From positions 1-64,000 of IMG/VR virus record IMGVR_UViG_3300025838_000023: a DNA stretch of 64,000 bases; one strand, 5' to 3'. The position numbers and the translations under genes are program-made. Shown here in pieces: positions 3-64,000 of this stretch. Every line of letters starts with the position of its first letter. The first letter of the stretch is position 1. This DNA comes from a virus (lineage: Duplodnaviria > Caudoviricetes). The notes beneath the pieces were generated by a model, which saw nothing but the letters and a program-made list of their open reading frames with translations, made no database searches and was not told where the DNA came from.

Positions 3-308
3 GAAATAAAGGTTTTATTTTCTCTCGTGGATTCCACTTATAACTCTCAACAGTGTCCAAAATGCTATTTGGTACGAAAGACCAATCGAAAAGGGAAAAT
101 ATTTAAATGTAAAAATTGTGGGTATACTACTGATGCAGATCAGAATGGTGCTTATAATGTATTACATAGAAGCAAGTTTCCTGATTTGGGAGTGGAATTT
201 CGTAGTAGAAGGTTGAATCTCAAAAAAGGTTTCTTTTGGAAACCGAATGGAGTTTTTACCTTTGAAGGTGAGGAGCTTAAAGTCCCTCATTCCATACAAA
301 AAGGATAA
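3..308 (+). CDS. tnpB: TnpB-like RNA-guided nuclease, C-terminal part (5' end outside window)
   Basis: Frame open from window start; SQQCPKC..FKCKNCG..DADQNGAYNV zinc ribbon plus RuvC-III motif. Confidence 0.85.
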   Translation, partial: EIKVLFSLVDSTYNSQQCPKCYLVRKTNRKGKIFKCKNCGYTTDADQNGAYNVLHRSKFPDLGVEFRSRRLNLKKGFFWKPNGVFTFEGEELKVPHSIQKG

Positions 309-328
309 AATTCTATATTTTATCTAAC

Positions 329-511
329 TCTGAAGCTCGTAAGAAACATTACAAGATAGTTTCACCAAATAATGAAATAATAGAATTTAAAGGACTTAGA
401 GAATTTTGTAAAGATAATAAATTACATAATCCTACATTCATCGATCTTCTGAAAGGAAGAATCGATGAATATAAAGGTTATACAAGAGTTTCTGATGTTA
501 TCAATCCCTAA
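329..511 (+). pseudogene. Orphan C-terminal fragment of a homing-endonuclease-like gene (NUMOD1-like), cut off by the TnpB element
   Basis: Start-less frame SEARKKHYKIVSPNNEIIEFKGLREFCKDNKL..LLKGRIDEYKGY begins at the element right-end motif. Confidence 0.6.
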
Positions 512-10971: not shown

Positions 10972-11385
10972 ATGACAACTAGACCAGACTTACAATCAAA
11001 CCCACATTTAAACCTACAAGTCGATGCTTACAAAGATCAACTATTACCGGAAGATTACGAAATCACAGAAGTATTAGGGGATATCGTAATGGGTGAATAT
11101 ATCGATACTGCAAATGATGGAAAGAGTATAATGAGAAATGGTATCATCTTGCCTATTGAAACCGTAGATAATAGAGCATGGAGAGTAGTAAAGGCACTTC
11201 TCGTAGGACCAGAAGTTAAACAAATCAAACAAGGTGATATTGTTATTATTGCTGGAGACAAAGGACTACAATCAATCAGCCGTAATGGTAAAATGACAGT
11301 ATTCTTTAACCAAGAAAGAACTTTTGGTATTTGTAAAAAAATTGTTAGTGGAACGCCTGTAGTTACTAAGAAATCGAAGAAGTAA
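10972..11385 (+). CDS. GroES-like co-chaperonin
   Basis: VLGDIV, GIILP mobile loop, VGPEVKQIKQGDIVI. Confidence 0.75.
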   Translation: MTTRPDLQSNPHLNLQVDAYKDQLLPEDYEITEVLGDIVMGEYIDTANDGKSIMRNGIILPIETVDNRAWRVVKALLVGPEVKQIKQGDIVIIAGDKGLQSISRNGKMTVFFNQERTFGICKKIVSGTPVVTKKSKK

Positions 11386-11386
11386 T

Positions 11387-12103
11387 ATGAAAGCATCTAA
11401 TATGAAATATCTAATATTCAATGAGGATGGTGAAATCATTGAAGATAACATAATTGAAACTACGGATGGAACAATAGAATTTGGATCATCGTGTATCACT
11501 CTAAATTTTAATGGAAATCATACGGATACTATAGTTTCAGGACAGGTATTTATAAATGGATGGCATATAAGAGTAGAACAAGGAAATGCGTTAGGTAGAT
11601 ATTATATGTTAGCAACGATGGTGAAAGGGAATATTAGATTTTCTGCTATTGTTAATCATATAATGGAAGATGAGATGCAATTCCAATTATTTTTCAAATT
11701 TGCTGAATTCTTTTTACCTACAAGAGAACCACATTGTTGCTGTAAATCAAACTATAACAAAGTTTTATTGCCATATATTAACAAAGTTTTTCGTTCTATG
11801 GTAAAACATTATAATTACGAAGAGTATTATAACAATTTAGAATATACAAAAAATAATAGATTGGAAAGAATTATGGAAGAAATTAATCAAGAAATTAGTA
11901 AATCTGCAATAGATGCTGCATATAAAGATCATCATATTTGGCTTGGTGTTACTCCTTGTAAAAGTCATAGTGTAATTGCTGATGCTGCTAGAGTAATTCA
12001 AGAAGCGATTAATGAAGAAACTAATGATTTAACATCAAAACTCATAGAGTCTCATAAAGAACTTGGTAAGCTAAAAACCAATCTAATAAAACTTAATACA
12101 TAA
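11387..12103 (+). pseudogene. 5' half of a gene interrupted by the TnpB element
   Basis: Codon CTA 12083-85 is in frame with CTA 13539-41; last 5 aa come from the element. Confidence 0.7.
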
Positions 12104-13541
12104 TACAGCATTTTTAAGATAAATCAAGAAAAGTATTTTAAAAACAAATTTATTTTTAAAATATCTCATTTTATCTCTAGTTTTTCATACAAATTAGGTT
12201 AAATATAAATGGATGTAATAATCCATAGATGATAACTATAAAAGCAAAGATAAAGAATGAAATACATATTGAAGATTATGTTCGACAATTCAATAATGTA
12301 AAGAGGTTTGCTTTTAATAGATTTTTAGAAGAAAAATCACTATCAGAAGTATATCATCTTTCATGCAGAACTTTAAATAACTGTGACTTGTTAGATGCAT
12401 CATTTAGAGAATCTGCTGTATTCAAAGCTAAAGAATTATATGATAGCGGAAATCATAAAGTTATATTTGGTGGAAGAAACAATTTCAATAAACTAAAATA
12501 TAAAAAAAAGTCTGCATTACCACTCAAAAAGAATGTATGGCTTTATTCTCAAGGAAGATCAAATTTTAAAGGAAATAGAAAGTTTAATTTCGATTTATAT
12601 AACAATAAGATTACATTTAAACCTGAAAGAGGTATTAAAATAGATATAGAATTTGAAAATGTATCTAAAAACGAAAGGAAGTTATTAGATAAAGCACAGT
12701 TCTTATCACAACAAAAGCAATGTCCAATATCAGTTTCATTATCACAAGAATATATACTGTTTTCTATAGATGAAACAATAATTAAAACGCCAAGAACTAA
12801 AATAATAAAAAATAGAATATTATCTTTAGATTCTAATCCTGAAAATATAGGAATTTCTATTATTGACTGGAACAATAAAGACAATAAGAATATAATACAT
12901 AAAGAAGTTATTGATTTAAGAGAACTTCGAAATGCAAAAACTACTAAGAAACACTATGAACTTCTATCAGTAGCTCAAAGAATATCTAAATTAGCAAAGC
13001 ACTATAATTGTGAATTAGTAGCATTCGAAAAACTAAATATCAAACCAAAAGATAATAAAAAAGGTAAACTCTATAACAGAATGATTAATAATAACTGGAA
13101 TAGAACTCTCTTCTTTAATAATCTAATTAAATGGTGCAATATTCATGATATTAAAACTCAAGAAATAGAACCAGCTTATTCTTCTTTCATAGGTCAAATG
13201 ATAAATGAATTAGAACCTGATATGATAGCGGCTTCTATAGAGTTATCTCGTAGAGCTTACTTGTTCTATAATACTTTTATAACAAAACAATTTTTACCGT
13301 TTAAAGATGGTAAGAAAATGGATATAGTTTATCCTGAATTCGATCTTAATGTGCTACCTACTCGTTGGAAGAAAATGGTAGAATCAAATACTAAGATTGA
13401 TTCATGGAAGAAATTGTATACCAAATTAAAGAAATCTGAATTGAGTTATAGATTTCCTTTTAAATCTTGGAAACAAGATAAAAAGTCTTTAAGTCATATA
13501 TCTAGAAAATCAAAGATTCTTCTATATTTGTGATAACTCTA
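12086..13541 (+). mobile_element. Non-autonomous IS607-family element (tnpB only)
   Basis: TCTA at both junctions; both ends match the copy at 63416-63797; removal restores an ORF. Confidence 0.85.
12229..13533 (+). CDS. tnpB: TnpB-like RuvC nuclease without zinc finger
   Basis: RFAFNR, IFGG, SLDSNP, AFEKL, PAYSSFIG, PDMIAASIELSRR; D-E-D triad intact. Confidence 0.85.
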   Translation: MITIKAKIKNEIHIEDYVRQFNNVKRFAFNRFLEEKSLSEVYHLSCRTLNNCDLLDASFRESAVFKAKELYDSGNHKVIFGGRNNFNKLKYKKKSALPLKKNVWLYSQGRSNFKGNRKFNFDLYNNKITFKPERGIKIDIEFENVSKNERKLLDKAQFLSQQKQCPISVSLSQEYILFSIDETIIKTPRTKIIKNRILSLDSNPENIGISIIDWNNKDNKNIIHKEVIDLRELRNAKTTKKHYELLSVAQRISKLAKHYNCELVAFEKLNIKPKDNKKGKLYNRMINNNWNRTLFFNNLIKWCNIHDIKTQEIEPAYSSFIGQMINELEPDMIAASIELSRRAYLFYNTFITKQFLPFKDGKKMDIVYPEFDLNVLPTRWKKMVESNTKIDSWKKLYTKLKKSELSYRFPFKSWKQDKKSLSHISRKSKILLYL

Positions 13542-13560
13542 GAATATTATATAAAATTAT
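13270..13560 (+). ncRNA. Putative omegaRNA (scaffold overlapping tnpB 3' end, guide in flank)
   Basis: This segment is what the protein-less copy at 63416-63690 retains; boundaries approximate. Confidence 0.6.
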
Positions 13561-13991
13561 ACCAAGATACGTATAAAGATTTAGTAGTTACAAGAGTTGA
13601 AAAAGATAATTGGATAGAAACTTGTAAGCAAACGCAAAGAAATACTGATTATTATAGAGATTTATTAATTCAAATTGGAGAAGTGATTGGAGAAGATGCG
13701 AAAGTATGTGATGATGGCACAGTAGTTCCTGATATTCTTGTAGCTAAAGTTCCAGAATTAGCGATATCAATTATAGAAAATTACAAAGAAACTAAGAAAA
13801 ATAAAACATATAATAATTACGGTGGATGTTCTTCGGAAGATATGGAATTAACTCCTAAATTAAAAGAAATCAAATATTATTTAGTTTGGGATACTAATAC
13901 AATTTTAATAATAACAAAATCTACAACTAATACATCTGCCGAAGATATAAAACAAATTGAAAAAAGTAATGGTTTTATTATGTGGATATAG
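13530..13991 (+). pseudogene. 3' half of the gene interrupted by the TnpB element
   Basis: Fusion reads KLKTN-L-EYYIKLYQDT, ~382 aa. Confidence 0.7.
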
Positions 13992-14010
13992 ATAAATAAA
14001 TCTATATACT

Positions 14011-14463
14011 ATGAATTGCGTATCTTCATCGCCTACTATTAAATTTTACTATAGAAAAAGAAAAGCATTATCAGTAGAAGCAGCAAAAAAGGAAACTGAA
14101 TATCGATTAGCTGTAGCAAATAAATTCAAGGATATACTGCAAGATGATATATTAAATTTGGATTTGGTGTCAATGGTGAAGAAGCAATGTGAACGGTTGA
14201 CAGAGGATGGACTAGAAATAGTATCTACCATATTACCATCCTCAGAAGCTAGATGTCCATTATGTATAGAAGAAAGTGATATATTTATAAAGTGGATTGA
14301 TGATTCGTTATATACTAAATTTCCTAATAATAATAAAACATTAGTAATCAATAATAACACATCTACAGATTGGGATATTACAACTGAAGGTATCCGACCA
14401 TTAAGAAAATGTGATACTTGTGTTAATGGGTTTAGAAAAGATGAAATACCACTATGCGATTAA
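14011..14463 (+). CDS. Hypothetical protein with two CxxC
   Basis: CPLC, CDTC. Confidence 0.55.
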   Translation: MNCVSSSPTIKFYYRKRKALSVEAAKKETEYRLAVANKFKDILQDDILNLDLVSMVKKQCERLTEDGLEIVSTILPSSEARCPLCIEESDIFIKWIDDSLYTKFPNNNKTLVINNNTSTDWDITTEGIRPLRKCDTCVNGFRKDEIPLCD

Positions 14464-14840
14464 CAGCATCAGGATTAATGGCTTTATTACATTCAAACGT
14501 AGTAGAGTTAAAGTTTAGAAGAAGAATCCCAAAAGCAGGATTTAATGCATATAGAAGAATGTTATGCACTACTGATCATATACTTCTCAATTCAGCGGGT
14601 GGTAAAACTATATTAAATTATAAACCACCAATCGGAAGGCATTTAAAGTTTAGTCCTTATGCTAAAAATCTTGTTGTTGTGTATGATTTATTTATGCAGG
14701 ACTTTAGAATGGTTAATTGTGATGATTGTGATGTGGTTTCCGTGATACAATCAACACCTAATGGAAAGTTTTGGGAGTATTTTAACGATAGATTACGTAA
14801 AATGACAGCATCAGAAAAATTAATATTTCAAAATAATTAA
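14454..14840 (+). CDS. Sm-like SH3 barrel (WYL_2/DUF2693-like) phage protein
   Basis: VELKFRRR, RRMLCT, VVYDL...FR motifs. Confidence 0.6.
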   Translation: MRLTASGLMALLHSNVVELKFRRRIPKAGFNAYRRMLCTTDHILLNSAGGKTILNYKPPIGRHLKFSPYAKNLVVVYDLFMQDFRMVNCDDCDVVSVIQSTPNGKFWEYFNDRLRKMTASEKLIFQNN

Positions 14841-43312: not shown

Positions 43313-43355
43313 ATGTTTTATGTGGAGGTATATGAGATATACAAACAATAGAAGT

Positions 43356-44729
43356 TTAGTAAAAAGTATAACAATTTACAGAACTTTTATATGATTTGAA
43401 CTTAAAACCCTTATATGGATCACATTCATCTAAGGAAACTCTATATCTCTCTTTAGAGTTTTTTATATTAGAACATGTAGATATCCATTTATATTCATTA
43501 GTCAGTGAATTCTCCGTTTCCTTCCAATGGTGTAAGAATTTTGACTTAATATTAAATAAAGGAAAATACATATCTTTATTTCTACCAATTTTATACTGAA
43601 ATCCTCTTCTAGCTATTTCAATTGCTGCATTTACACAATCATAACTATTATATTGTAAGTTACCTATATAAGAACTATAAGCAGCAGTTACTTCATATAT
43701 TTTAACTCCTAAACATGGAATGTTATTTTTTAATTGATTTATTATAAGATTTCTATCCCATTTATTGTTACATAATCTATTATAATTCTTTCCTTTCTTT
43801 TTATCATTCGATTCCATTTTAAGTTCTTCTAATATACAATATTGAACTTTAAAATGTTTACATAAAGATATAATAGATTTTGATATTTCTAGAGTTTCAT
43901 GTTTTAGTTTATTATTCTTATAAATTGATTTAGGATGTGATGATTTGAATCCAGAAGAATCCGTCAGGCCGTTTAATTTATACATTTGTTTATGTATTAC
44001 TTTAAACTCATCATTTTTGAAATCTATAATAGCCAATCCAACATAATTCGGGTTTAAATCGATACCTAATATTCTTCCTTGTTTGAGTTTAGGATTTAGA
44101 ATTGAATAAGATACGGTTTCTGGTTCGTGGGTTTCAATAACTTTTAATAATTCAGGTTTATCATATGTTAGATAAATATATTCAGCATCTAGTTTAATTC
44201 CATATGAAAATAACTTCTTAGAAGAATATTTTTGTATATTTTCTAAAGTTTTCTTTATATTCTTTTTTGGAGTTAATATTTCCAGATTAAATTTCTTCTT
44301 ATTTAGTTTGAACAAAAATGAAAGTGATTCTAGGTATATTTCTATATGTCGATTTCCATTAGTTGCTATATCTCCTTGGAATTGAATTGAACGTAATTTT
44401 TTATTTGAGTATTCTTCTTTTGATATTATATTTTTAGCTCTTTTAATAAAATTTGATTTGCCACCAAAGATACATAATTTATTCTTTTCTAATTCAATAT
44501 CTGATGAATACATTCCTTTAGCTTCTATTATTGCAGTATCTAATATTCTTGAGTTCAAATTTGATATATTATTTAAATAATTCACAAGAGGTTTGATTTC
44601 TTTAGTATCTAAATTATCATAAAATCTATTATAAGCAAATCGAATTACATTAGTATATTCATTTCTAATGAGTTTTAGGTAATCATAGAACTCTTTTGAT
44701 GCTGTATATTTAAATTTTAGAGTTATCAT
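43356..44729 (-). CDS. tnpB: TnpB-like RuvC nuclease without zinc finger
   Basis: RFAYNR, GIDLNP, ILEEL, AAYSSYIG, YDCVNAAIEIARR. Confidence 0.85.
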   Translation of the reverse strand: MITLKFKYTASKEFYDYLKLIRNEYTNVIRFAYNRFYDNLDTKEIKPLVNYLNNISNLNSRILDTAIIEAKGMYSSDIELEKNKLCIFGGKSNFIKRAKNIISKEEYSNKKLRSIQFQGDIATNGNRHIEIYLESLSFLFKLNKKKFNLEILTPKKNIKKTLENIQKYSSKKLFSYGIKLDAEYIYLTYDKPELLKVIETHEPETVSYSILNPKLKQGRILGIDLNPNYVGLAIIDFKNDEFKVIHKQMYKLNGLTDSSGFKSSHPKSIYKNNKLKHETLEISKSIISLCKHFKVQYCILEELKMESNDKKKGKNYNRLCNNKWDRNLIINQLKNNIPCLGVKIYEVTAAYSSYIGNLQYNSYDCVNAAIEIARRGFQYKIGRNKDMYFPLFNIKSKFLHHWKETENSLTNEYKWISTCSNIKNSKERYRVSLDECDPYKGFKFKSYKSSVNCYTFY

Positions 44730-45321
44730 TAGATATTTCTTTTTTTAGTTTATTTAATGTTCTTCTGTGAGAATACATTTTATCAGAGAAGCAATCTATA
44801 ATAGATATCAAGTCTTCTGTTAGTTCTTGTTCGTATGTTTTATTTTGTATAGTATCGTTTATTACTAATATTTTTGTTCCAAAGTATTTAAAAATTGATT
44901 CAAGGAGTTCGAATCCAAATCTGACTAATCTATCTTTATTTTCTATTATGATTAGTTCTACATTTCCTTTTATGGTTTCTTGTATTAGGTTATTGAATCC
45001 ATTTCTTTCGAAGTTCATTCCACTTTTGATATCTTCGAGTTGAGAATCTAGATGTATATTATTTAAAATACACCAATTATAAATTCTATTTGATTGTTCT
45101 TTTAGTTGGGATTTTCTATCATTGGAAGAGACTCTAGCGTATGATATATTGATCTTATTTTTCTTTTCTTTTTTTATCCCTATTAGTTTGTATACTGAGT
45201 TATCATCGTAGATGTAATGTTTATCATTGATTTTTGTGTATTTTATGTTACCATTTTTTACGTAATTATATAGAGTTTGTCTAGTTACGTTTAACAGTTT
45301 CATTACTTCTTTTGATTTCAT
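44710..45321 (-). CDS. tnpA: IS607 serine recombinase transposase
   Basis: N-terminal MerR-like HTH; YARVSS, DIKSG, KDRLVRFG, EL.EDL.SII..FS. Confidence 0.93.
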   Translation of the reverse strand: MKSKEVMKLLNVTRQTLYNYVKNGNIKYTKINDKHYIYDDNSVYKLIGIKKEKKNKINISYARVSSNDRKSQLKEQSNRIYNWCILNNIHLDSQLEDIKSGMNFERNGFNNLIQETIKGNVELIIIENKDRLVRFGFELLESIFKYFGTKILVINDTIQNKTYEQELTEDLISIIDCFSDKMYSHRRTLNKLKKEISNDNSKI

Positions 45322-45431
45322 TCTAATTATATTTAACCATTTTTGTATAAAAAACTTGATTTGTTTTTATTTTATTTTATAAATTTATGGAAAATATGTT
45401 GACATTTCTATCATATGCCTCCATAATCTAA

Positions 45432-46850
45432 TTAGAGTTCTGCGTTTTTCCGAACTTCATCAAAAGTGTATGTTTTCAACATCATACCATTTTCAAAAAC
45501 AGTAACCAATTGACTTTCTCTATCTCCTAAATCCTTTTCTGGAATAGTTTGGTATTTTCCGTTTTCATCTTTAATAAGTTCCAATCTTCCCTTTTTCGAC
45601 ATCTTACCTTTATCATCAACAGGGTCTTTATATACTTCCACCCATTCATCTCCAAGCTTTGCAGCAGAACACTTAAATGCAAACTTTTGATCATCTCTCG
45701 AATGTCCCTGCAATAATTGGCCCCCCATTCCGAAGATAATACAATCAGTCGAATATCCATTATTAGTTACACAGTCAAGAATATATTTGATAGTTTCATG
45801 GCATAATCCATCACCATAGATCACTCCTATCTTTGGATTTAACACTTTATACCCTTTACTATTTATGGTATGTCCAAAGTATTTATCCAATTCTCGAATA
45901 ACACGAATGGAGGTTTCAACAGGATCACCACTATCAGGACGAACTACAAACTTTGCAAATCCTGTTTTTTGTCCACGATTAAGAATAGGCAATTTTAATT
46001 CTGTACCAAAAAATTCAATAGCCTTCCAAATATTATAACTATCAGATACAACACTTAATATTCCTTCTGGATATTCCTCAACAAATCTACGATATGCATC
46101 AAATTCGTGCTCTCTACCATAGATGCAAGTCGTTGAATGTTCTGTAGCCGCTACCGAATGTCCAACTCCCTTATCTGCACCATAATATCTTCGTGCATAT
46201 ACAATACCTTGAAGTGTATCAGTTCCTTTGAAATTTACTAGATGTGCGCTACCACCAATTCCAGCACTTTCCACACTAGAAACCCCACGGAATCCAAAAC
46301 AATTCAAATGAAAAGGAGAAACACCAGTATCACTACTAAACTTTGCGTATTGCCCTATGGTTTTTTTAATTTGATAACTTGTCGAACAAACCGAAATCGG
46401 GTACCATATTTCGTGTAAGACCGTTTCAGACCAATTGGTAAGCCATGCCAATTCTTCATCAGTAGATTCTACAATCACTAAAACATTCCGAGTTCCAACT
46501 ACTGATCCTTCTCTTACTGCACGAATTTTTATAGGCAATTTACCACCATGAACTTCAAGAATTCTTTCCCAACCTTTACGATTGAAATATTCATGAGTAA
46601 AAAATACATCACCCAAAATATCATCAGCATCATCAAGCATCCAAGGCTCGACAACAACACCAGAGAAATATTTCTCTAATACCATTTGTAGTCCGAAAAA
46701 TACCGTTTCGTCATATTTTCCTCCCCTACTTTCCAAATAACTATAAATTACTTTAGTGTTTTTTGGATATTGCAACCAATGTGTTTCCTTATAAGCATCT
46801 GCCAAAAGGATCGTGTTTTCTGTTCGTCTTGTCATATTATCTTTTATCAT
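45432..46850 (-). CDS. nadV: Nicotinamide phosphoribosyltransferase (NAMPT)
   Basis: DAYK..H..QYP, FGLQ, FGFRG, AHLVNF.GTD, ATEHS, SVVSDSY, RPDSGD, GDG, FGMGG. Confidence 0.93.
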   Translation of the reverse strand: MIKDNMTRRTENTILLADAYKETHWLQYPKNTKVIYSYLESRGGKYDETVFFGLQMVLEKYFSGVVVEPWMLDDADDILGDVFFTHEYFNRKGWERILEVHGGKLPIKIRAVREGSVVGTRNVLVIVESTDEELAWLTNWSETVLHEIWYPISVCSTSYQIKKTIGQYAKFSSDTGVSPFHLNCFGFRGVSSVESAGIGGSAHLVNFKGTDTLQGIVYARRYYGADKGVGHSVAATEHSTTCIYGREHEFDAYRRFVEEYPEGILSVVSDSYNIWKAIEFFGTELKLPILNRGQKTGFAKFVVRPDSGDPVETSIRVIRELDKYFGHTINSKGYKVLNPKIGVIYGDGLCHETIKYILDCVTNNGYSTDCIIFGMGGQLLQGHSRDDQKFAFKCSAAKLGDEWVEVYKDPVDDKGKMSKKGRLELIKDENGKYQTIPEKDLGDRESQLVTVFENGMMLKTYTFDEVRKNAEL

Positions 46851-48937: not shown

Positions 48938-50566
<1,629 letters not shown>

Positions 50567-63032: not shown

Positions 63033-63376
63033 AAGTTTAGAACACGGTTGAGATTAAACCGTTTGTAGTATCACCTTCGGAACATTATAGTATAATTGCG
63101 TCATACTTTCTTTCCTTATCCTCGTAACCCCTACTTAAAGGCAATTACGACTGATACCAAAGCTGCTTTTTTATAGATGTAGCATTTCATCTGAAATGTT
63201 AAGTTATTCTACCTTCCTCTTACACTCAAGCTTGCGACCTGTTCAACTCCGCTAAGAGTTTAGCTGCGATTCCGATAAACAATCTGAAACCTTGCGAGTC
63301 TCACACTGCCCTAATTATGTTACCATTTAGGGATTAAGCCATTTTCGCTTAACATCACCAACGACTTTGCTGTTTG

Positions 63377-63830
63377 TAGTAATAATCGGATTTGAACCGA
63401 TAACATTTAGTTTAATAGAGTTATCATAAGCATAGAAGAATATAACTATTTTCTAGATTTATGCCTTAAAGACTTTTTATTCTATTTTATAGGATTTAAA
63501 AGGAAATCTATAACTCAATTTAGATTTCTTTAATTTGGAATATAACGTTTCTATGAACCAATTTTAGTATTTGATCTACCATTTTCTTCCAATGAGTAGG
63601 AAGAATACTAAAACCAATTCAAAGATATATTTTATATCCATTTTTATTATCATCTTTCAATGATAAAAATTGTTTTATTATAATAGTATTTATTCTACTT
63701 TATATCAAAATCAAGAGATAAATATAAAAATAATTTAAATTGTATAATATTTTTCTTAACTTATCTTAAAAATGTTATATTATGTATTAAGTTTTATTAG
63801 ACTAATGCGCTACCATTGCGCTATATTGCA
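63377..63830 (-). tRNA. Split, probably pseudo tRNA-Asn-like gene (rejoined loop CU-AUU-AA)
   Basis: D arm GCGC-AATGGTA-GCGC, anticodon stem TTAGT/ACTAA, T arm ATCGG-TTCAAAT-CCGAT; two acceptor-stem mismatches. Confidence 0.7.
63416..63797 (-). mobile_element. 382-bp protein-less derivative of the 12086-13541 element (left end plus omegaRNA/right end)
   Basis: Shares TCTAATAAAACTTAATACATAATA left end and ~270 nt of 3' region ending TGATAACTCTA. Confidence 0.88.
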
Positions 63831-64000
63831 ACCTATCCAAGTGGAGCGTTGGTTGTAGCCTCATTCTCTTTTGAAGAACGGATACTACTCCACTTATATC
63901 TTTCTCTTGCGGATACTTGATGTTATTTCTAGATCGAAGCTGAAAATTAAAGTAATCAACTTAAACCTATCATAATGCTACTAAGCCCTTGGTTGCTTAA

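Follow-up and report, generated by a model that had tools for sequence, protein, structure and literature searches.

A tnpA-less TnpB element of the IS607 family interrupts a 382-codon gene in a Caudoviricetes genome

In described members of the insertion sequence (IS) family IS607, including CboIStron of C. botulinum (PMC10690162) and IS607/IS1535 (PMC6188088), a serine recombinase TnpA with a MerR-type helix-turn-helix (HTH) is encoded directly upstream of, and overlapping, tnpB. As shown experimentally, the TnpA core dinucleotide of CboIStron is GG, its donor joint is precise, and its target-adjacent motif (TAM), TGGG, is the same as the TnpA target motif (PMC10690162). Here we describe an element of this family, copy A, which lies within a gene of 382 codons at positions 12086–13541 of the window, that is, of the whole 64,000-nt stretch of DNA analyzed. 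The window is the first 64 kb of the 106,782-bp IMG/VR virus record IMGVR_UViG_3300025838_000023, which is estimated to be 49% complete. The locus comprises the following features:

11387–12085, plus strand: 5' part of the interrupted open reading frame (ORF), 233 codons, with weak SPFH/Band-7-like leads only
12082–12085, plus strand: TCTA of the left flank, a candidate both for the crossover core (within TCT) and for the TAM (possibly RTCTA)
12086–13541, plus strand: copy A, 1456-bp non-autonomous IS607-family element with tnpB and a putative omegaRNA scaffold, without tnpA
12086–12228, plus strand: left end; every frame meets a stop within 7 codons, after which comes a block shared with element D (see below) upstream of tnpB
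12229–13533, plus strand: tnpB, predicted 434-aa RuvC nuclease without zinc ribbon, catalytic residues D201, E267 and D331
13431–13540, plus strand: omegaRNA-like scaffold with hairpins at 13431–13456, 13458–13484 and 13493–13534, then TAACTCT (RNAalifold)
13530–13533, plus strand: GTGA, an out-reading GTG overlapping the tnpB TGA and in frame with the 3' half of the gene
13538–13541, plus strand: right-end TCTA, part of the terminal motif TTCTAT-N8-TAACTCT
13542–13991, plus strand: 3' part of the interrupted ORF, 149 codons and stop, the first ~20 nt being the putative omegaRNA guide/target

According to our analysis, copy A is an ordinary new member of the IS607 family and not a new kind of system. 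As in other members of the family, terminal inverted repeats and target duplication are absent, both the left flank and the right end carry an identical short core, a motif is found beside the left end where a TAM is expected, a predicted structured RNA of the right end overlaps the 3' end of tnpB, and non-autonomous and miniature derivatives exist. In contrast to CboIStron, the core/target of copy A is TCT(A) instead of GG/TGGG, and neither tnpA nor a group I intron is present; in comparison to the characterized IS607 elements, its TnpB lacks a zinc ribbon and is unrecognized by Pfam, and it resides in a jumbo phage of lytic type and not in a bacterial chromosome. We consider it highly probable that copy A is a tnpA-less IS607 element inserted by a TnpA acting in trans, at TCT(A), into a once-continuous 382-codon gene. 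The boundaries, the copy family, the target motif, the TnpB fold and catalytic triad, the RNA structure, the IS607 TnpA in the same genome and the one-gene origin are all directly supported, whereas the role of the TAM, the use of a guide, homing, mobilization in trans and excision without a scar would follow by analogy with the mechanism of the family.

A phage-borne relative has already been annotated, namely ISCaje4 of the Campylobacter phage CP220 (NC_027997; PMC2853527). Its TnpB is homologous to that of copy A (31% identity over 81% of the query, tblastn E 1e-23), and thus this TnpB clade was already catalogued as an IS in a phage. ISCaje4 resembles the elements described here in that a resolvase-like transposase remnant precedes tnpB and in that the host is a large virulent phage; it differs in being a single-copy, intergenic element with a truncated tnpA, which its authors classed under IS200/IS605 (IS608 subgroup) (PMC2853527). 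The annotated ends of ISCaje4 are unlike those of copy A, yet TCTA stands directly after its annotated right end.

The junctions were read directly as ...ACC AAT CTA|ATAAAAC (12085|12086) on the left and ...ACT CTA|GAA TAT (13541|13542) on the right, as they had been given in the preliminary description, which was made from the sequence alone. Because TCT(A) is present at both junctions, the boundary of the insert is ambiguous by up to 4 nt, and 12085–13540 is an equally valid description. The plus-strand ORFs at the site are 11387–12103 (238 aa), 12229–13533 (434 aa) and 13530–13991 (153 aa). In-silico deletion of 12086–13541 joins 11387–12085 and 13542–13991 into one 382-codon frame with a terminal stop only, in agreement with the earlier claim that excision unites two annotated ORFs into one of ~382 aa; the rejoined (empty-site) gene reads AATCTAGAATAT, with the junction codons AAT CTA GAA. 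The 5' half continues for 5 codons (IKLNT) inside the element before it meets TAA, its own stop being absent, and the first native ATG/GTG/TTG of the 3' half occurs only at codon 48. The listed start of the 3' half is the GTG at 13530, which lies in the element and overlaps the tnpB TGA (13531–13533), with ATA ACT CTA leading from it into the flank. The element therefore does supply a stop for the 5' half and a GTG for the 3' half, as had been proposed. Neither a native stop for the 5' half nor an early native start for the 3' half exists, and the two ORFs therefore formed one gene before the insertion. Restoration of the frame upon removal of the element is automatic, because no target duplication is made; the sole informative frame coincidence is that the start codon of the element is in frame with the 3' half, a 1-in-3 chance event.

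The opposite view, that there were two separate genes all along, with the element in an intergenic spacer and the in-frame join coincidental, is very hard to sustain. It could appeal to P0153, a distant homologue of the 3' half (38% identity), which is a stand-alone 138-aa protein encoded by its own gene in an unrelated phage, and to the search of 5.8 billion protein clusters, where no full-length homologue of the joined protein is on record. However, the flanking DNA provides neither a stop for the 5' ORF nor, for 47 codons, a start-type codon for the 3' ORF, an IS607-type insertion neither deletes nor duplicates target DNA, and the joined frame stays open for 382 codons in a genome of 31% G+C, where stops are frequent.

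The interrupted gene itself has few relatives. For the 5' half, a match to Pfam Band_7 (E 0.044) and an atlas score of 0.87 are leads only, and the sole hit among the 5.8 billion clusters at 128–408 aa, a range that covers an intact 382-aa allele, was the protein itself. Used as locus queries, neither half found relatives in viral contigs or in the five large phage records with the closest TnpB relatives, and megablast of positions 11000–14500 against GenBank phages gave no close DNA relative. The 5' half was found on 17 metagenome contigs, most of which stop at or soon after the element, and the interrupted form was present in 17/17. An empty site, which the preliminary description had suggested looking for in related phages, had no genuine match in viral or Joint Genome Institute (JGI) metagenome contigs: the 21-mer query matched nothing in the former, and the two matches of the 20-mer in the latter were chance matches in AT-rich DNA (20–23 nt alignable to the joined gene). 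Most simply, the interrupted gene is a tolerated knock-out of a dispensable ORFan, and the stop and GTG supplied by the element are probably incidental.

With regard to the homologue P0153, its gene is found on two ENA metagenome contigs (L017 and L018) just downstream of a DEAD/ResIII helicase gene with intein-type Hom_end_hint/LAGLIDADG domains and near a large terminase gene.

Copy A belongs to a family of elements in the same record. Two further full copies, at 98461–99916 (copy B, 97%) and 95222–96677 (copy C, 92%), align with it over exactly positions 1–1456. Two miniature elements, at 63416–63797 (m1) and ~79933–80300 (m2), both on the minus strand, retain the two ends only (element positions 1–120 and 1185–1456; ~370 bp) and carry frameshifted tnpB remnants. 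The one in the window is listed as:

63416–63797, minus strand: mini-element m1, 382 bp, with both ends and no tnpB ORF

In retaining only ~120 nt at the left and ~260 nt at the right, the latter with the putative omegaRNA scaffold, m1 and m2 are similar to the palindrome-associated and miniature inverted-repeat transposable elements (PATE/MITE-like derivatives) of IS200/IS605/IS607, from which they differ in that one of them lies inside the tRNA-like module of a GOLLD RNA. Copies A and B show a clustered distribution of differences, with 25 of 51 in element positions 700–900 and 0 in the first 143 nt, a pattern that suggests recombination or gene conversion among copies.

All five left flanks (5/5) end in TCTA and all right ends in TAACTCT(A). 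At the genome frequency of TCTA (0.0057 per position-strand), the probability of finding it by chance at five independent sites is ~6e-12. The same TCT(A) stands at the left flank of element D and of two relatives (L014 and L021), and the TAACTCT(A) right end recurs in relatives from other phages at 41–68% protein identity. Being invariant at both junctions and part of the conserved right-end motif, TCT(A) is an element/core sequence and not a target duplication. This partly bears out the preliminary description, which took TCT(A) for the crossover core and a candidate TAM: as the junction sequence common to all copies and to distant relatives it fits IS607, and the two functional roles stand as candidates only. 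At -5, all five left flanks carry a purine (background 0.38) and the right ends a pyrimidine, a weak hint as to how self-targeting of the right junction might be avoided. The termini of copy A are not paired by any inverted repeat, and a k-mer search for TnpA-binding repeats shared by the ends of copy A and element D gave no clear signal in the AT-rich DNA. As for the contexts of insertion, only copy A lies in the sense direction within a substantial ORF; copy B splits none, copy C clips the end of a 92-aa antisense frame, and m2 is at the edge of a substantial ORF. The left end and element D have in common a conserved block (...GGTTAAATATAA...) that immediately precedes tnpB and is possibly a promoter; the promoter/terminator scan gave no enrichment, and no terminator within or after the element.

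The relative L014, on a Logan contig of 1509 bp, is an AT-rich element whose TnpB (P0003) is 55% identical to that of copy A; its flanks are G+C-rich, with TCT at both junctions, and thus the element family is not confined to AT-rich phages. Within its short flanks the frame is open across the in-silico joint.

The feature that defines IS607, a TnpA, is absent from copy A, whose single ORF is tnpB, and is present in a relative elsewhere in the window:

43349–45432, minus strand: element D, autonomous IS607 relative with tnpA at 44710–45321 and a 457-aa tnpB paralogue at 43356–44729

A search of the record for serine recombinases revealed this single one, at 44710–45321 on the minus strand, and no Y1 (HUH) transposase was found in the record. 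The protein scores 170 bits against NCBIfam NF033518, "IS607 family transposase" (cut-off 110), and has a MerR-type HTH (HTH_17/MerR_1) N-terminal to a Resolvase catalytic domain, the arrangement of CboIStron and IS607/IS1535. The tnpA gene of element D overlaps tnpB, and its TnpB is 34% identical to that of copy A over the whole length. In three relatives (L023, L024 and L026), the C-terminus of a recombinase is likewise encoded directly upstream of tnpB. Because its only ORF is tnpB and tnpA is lacking, copy A is a non-autonomous derivative of the IS607 family, and element D is the likely source of transposase for it in trans. This transposase goes unmentioned in the preliminary description. 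The TCTA that precedes element D lies at the stop codon of the NAMPT gene, and the end sequence of the element is AACTTCTA.

The NAMPT gene occupies 45432–46850, and the first A of element D completes its TAA; without the element the ORF would extend by 11 codons. Relative L021 is likewise inserted at the TC-TAA stop of a gene. In addition, the last 12 right-end nt at 13530–13541 (ATGATAACTCTA, with GTG in copy A) are the same as the first 12 nt of the element D tnpB (44718–44729, M-I-T-L), and the start of the left end of copy A is loosely like the codons that follow them. The 12-nt match could be a relic of the origin of the tnpA-less form or an AT-rich chance similarity; the idea of a circular permutation was dropped, as it was inseparable from the latter.

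The identification of the insert as a TnpB element, made in the preliminary description, was borne out by fold and by family. On its own, the 434-aa protein has no Pfam (E <= 0.1) or PHROG match, and its NCBIfam matches (TIGR01765, E 5.5e-4; TIGR01766, E 3.5e-3) and RuvC match are below the cut-offs; a sequence-profile search of the PDB was marginal (8j1j, E 0.026). A profile search gathered 1,216 representatives at E <= 1e-3 (455 at E <= 1e-30), and an alignment of 55 sequences showed no variation at D201 and E267 and at least 90% conservation at D331. Family members match TIGR01766 in 45 of 55 cases (best E 5.5e-12) and NF040570, guided_TnpB, in 8 of 55 (best E 8.8e-12), and the D-E-D residues are kept in all four paralogues. 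The AlphaFold model based on a multiple sequence alignment reached a mean predicted local distance difference test score (pLDDT) of 91.2 and a predicted template modeling score (pTM) of 0.84, in comparison to a pLDDT of 32 for a single-sequence model. With Foldseek, the best matches of the model were Cas12f, Cas12k, TnpB and Fanzor2 (E 1.9e-8 to 3.7e-5). By VIA-align, it superimposes on Cas12f at Z 18.6 (root-mean-square deviation 3.8, 301 aligned residues), on ISDra2 TnpB at Z 15.9 (4.3, 272 aligned), on the TnpB of the IS607 element ISFba1 at Z 14.1 and on mimivirus Fanzor2 at Z 13.2, the aligned span covering residues 1 to ~350–372; RuvC resolvases align at Z 13.4–13.6 over residues 195–352.

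Like the solved ISDra2 TnpB, ISFba1 TnpB and Cas12f (8exa, 8iaz and 9i8y; Z 14.1–18.6), the copy A protein thus has a WED-REC-RuvC arrangement alignable over ~270–300 residues, carries the D-E-D triad in the equivalent RuvC segments and is compact, at ~430 aa. It differs from them in sequence (7–14% identity), in a RuvC-I of the form D-x-N-P, in a C-terminal extension of ~80 residues (~352–434) that did not align to the solved structures, and in the missing zinc ribbon: in the four paralogues and the family consensus, the segment from AYSSFIG to D331 is 15 residues long with zero Cys, so that no CxxC...CxxC ribbon lies between RuvC-II and RuvC-III. The zinc ribbon is carried by "many", not all, TnpBs (PMC10711439). 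Differences among the copies are mainly at third codon positions, and between A and C 65 codon differences are synonymous and 24 non-synonymous; this dominance of synonymous, third-position changes indicates that TnpB is under purifying selection. The clade is enriched in phages: viral sequences make up 59% of an atlas cluster with 8,041 members, tblastn relatives were found in Campylobacter phages, in an uncultured phage of 462 kb and, at up to five places in one genome, in Lak megaphages, and 37 further loci came from IMG/VR contigs, most of them long.

A conserved RNA structure is predicted at the right end of the element. Eight right ends were aligned (copy A, copy C, mini m1 and five relatives found in other phages or contigs), and counting of pairs in the predicted helices gave 93% of cells paired, compared with 36–50% with slid partners. 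There are 15 compensatory pairs, compared with 1–6 in the slid controls, and 0 of 500 shuffles reached the observed values. A further helix is possible at 13354–13381. The last ~260 nt diverge 3–10x less than the rest of the element despite being coding, and the same part is kept by the minis. No Rfam family matched the right-end RNA of copy A or of the minis. Judged by the alignment, the structure appears as expected for an omegaRNA scaffold overlapping the 3' end of tnpB. The guide can be assigned, by analogy with the TnpB/IS607 mechanism, to the flank that follows TAACTCT(A).

These features are consistent with the following scenario. A serine-recombinase TnpA, most likely that of the IS607 relative at 43349–45432 in the same genome, would have inserted copy A in trans by a crossover at the short TCT(A) core; with no target duplication, removal of the element would restore AAT CTA GAA exactly. 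The ~16–20 nt of flank after TAACTCT(A) would serve as the omegaRNA guide, and TnpB loaded with this omegaRNA might, by analogy with IS605/IS607 elements, cut empty sites (TCTA then GAATATT...). The element would then be copied back by recombination with a sister genome and thereby stay fixed, and during co-infection it could home into element-free phages.

Several observations weigh against this scenario or against parts of it. The copies differ by 3–8%, so that transposition was not very recent. The only recombinase of the record, that of element D, is associated with end sequences different from those of copy A, and the record is only ~49% complete; mobilization in trans by this enzyme is therefore unproven. 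TCTA is present at both the left flank and the right end, which leaves unexplained how the right junction would avoid being cut, the -5 difference being only suggestive. Since the zinc ribbon of characterized TnpBs and Cas12f is missing, nuclease competence is an assumption. Finally, searches of viral contigs, of metagenome contigs and of the protein database revealed neither an empty site nor a circle junction nor an intact allele, so that the element is only presumed to be active.

The out-reading start codon at the right end raises the question of whether the insertion is of low cost by design, the left end stopping the 5' half, the right-end ATGA/GTGA re-initiating translation from tnpB, and the two pieces of the protein still working. 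The codon at this position is ATG in B, C, m1 and m2 and GTG in A, that is, a start codon in all five copies and in the frame that reads CTA as a codon. In copy A this is also the frame of the 3' half, and the change from ATG to GTG is synonymous for TnpB and retains a start codon. Moreover, the domain of the 3' half exists as the independent 138-aa protein in another phage, and the occurrence of the interrupted form alone on 17 metagenome contigs indicates that the phage is viable with a split gene. Yet the codon is not conserved in the closest relatives elsewhere, where it is TTG (L014), CGG (L021), TGG (L022) or AGG (L025), and it is absent in L015, whose right end has diverged, and in element D. 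The minis hold the ATG without any tnpB ORF for coupling, and with one in five insertions in the sense direction inside a gene, the in-frame match amounts to a single 1-in-3 event. No Shine-Dalgarno sequence was found upstream of the GTG, and maturation of the omegaRNA, which is established TnpB biology, would cut the same transcript at the right end. We therefore regard a design of this kind as unlikely, and insertion into a dispensable gene as the preferred reading; the suggestion of the preliminary description that the gene may work as a split product is thereby weakened. Splitting of a gene is what any intragenic insertion of an IS607 family member produces, and it would be nothing new unless the split product were shown to be made.

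Repair at the RNA level can be weighed in a similar way. IStrons are known from the IS607 family (PMC10690162), copy A lies in the sense direction and in frame, the minis are intron-sized, and m1 lies in an anticodon-like loop, which is a classic site of group I introns; if the elements were IStron-like introns spliced from the mRNA and from the host RNA of m1, the gene product would remain intact. However, Rfam group I/II introns had no match at E <= 1 over copy A and none at E <= 5 over both minis, and no boundary within the TCTA ambiguity yields an intron that ends in G. In addition, copy C is antisense to the only real ORF at its site, and copy B splits no ORF. On the absent intron match and the boundary bases we rejected this explanation, which we consider extremely improbable.

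In another view, the multi-copy TnpB/omegaRNA units and the minis have been co-opted, and the phage retains them mainly for cleaving the DNA of the host or of rival phages, or for gene regulation, and not as selfish transposons. The phage enrichment of the clade (the 8,041-member cluster and the up to five copies in Lak megaphages), the purifying selection on TnpB with its intact triad, and the existence of domesticated phage-encoded TnpB relatives (TldR) are compatible with such a role. Yet each guide would match only the flank of its own element, as in selfish homing, the copies occupy unrelated sites with the hallmarks of mobile elements and have MITE derivatives, and no array or retargeted guide was seen. 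We find co-option scarcely probable and a selfish IS607 element the better explanation.

A broader formulation would be that a zinc-less phage TnpB clade (>1,000 clusters at 50% identity, unrecognized by Pfam), riding on TCT-core IS607 ends and having acquired, in this phage lineage, an outward start that gives two translated halves, is a low-cost RNA-guided homing gene drive for jumbo phages, with omegaRNA-only minis and several nuclease cargos that have one right-end motif in common. Taken as a whole, we regard this combination as improbable.

With or without such a role, this TnpB element of IS607 type has sharply defined ends, and its six natural insertion sites make it possible to read a short candidate AT-rich target/TAM, (R)TCTA, and a putative omegaRNA scaffold. 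The large zinc-less clade to which the 434-aa protein belongs is missed by standard domain models, and its recognition aids the annotation of "hypothetical" genes of jumbo phages and megaphages. The 434-aa TnpB is a candidate compact genome-editing nuclease, and the locus is an added case in which to ask how RNA-guided homing elements spread among lytic phages.

As for the host, ARAGORN predicted a transfer-messenger RNA (tmRNA; tag ADNTELALAA) and ten tRNA genes on the minus strand at 74239–86750, beyond the window, which itself also encodes a GroEL-type chaperonin (48938–50566), NAMPT and two superfamily 1 (SF1) helicases. The tmRNA, tRNAs, chaperonin, NAMPT and helicases fit a jumbo phage without a close cultured relative.

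A further TnpB type is found at the very start of the contig:

3–331, plus strand: C-terminal coding part (3–308) and right end of an element with a third, canonical TnpB type, which has a CxxC...CxxC zinc ribbon

The right end of this element (311–331) reads TTCTATATTT-N4-TAACTCT, matching the terminal motif of the zinc-less elements, and by this likeness several nuclease cargos seem to share one recombinase end. After the final TCT of this element comes a start-less frame that resembles the C-terminus of a homing endonuclease.

The host RNA of m1 is a GOLLD RNA (Rfam RF02032) at 63045–63895 on the minus strand, which m1 splits into a 3' part of 130.9 bits and a 5' hairpin of 38.8 bits; neither part reaches the gathering score of 150, a shortfall due solely to the insert. 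Within the GOLLD RNA, m1 is inserted into a tRNA-like module, at its anticodon-like loop, and after in-silico excision of m1 this module is called by ARAGORN as Asn(ATT), with an unusual anticodon.

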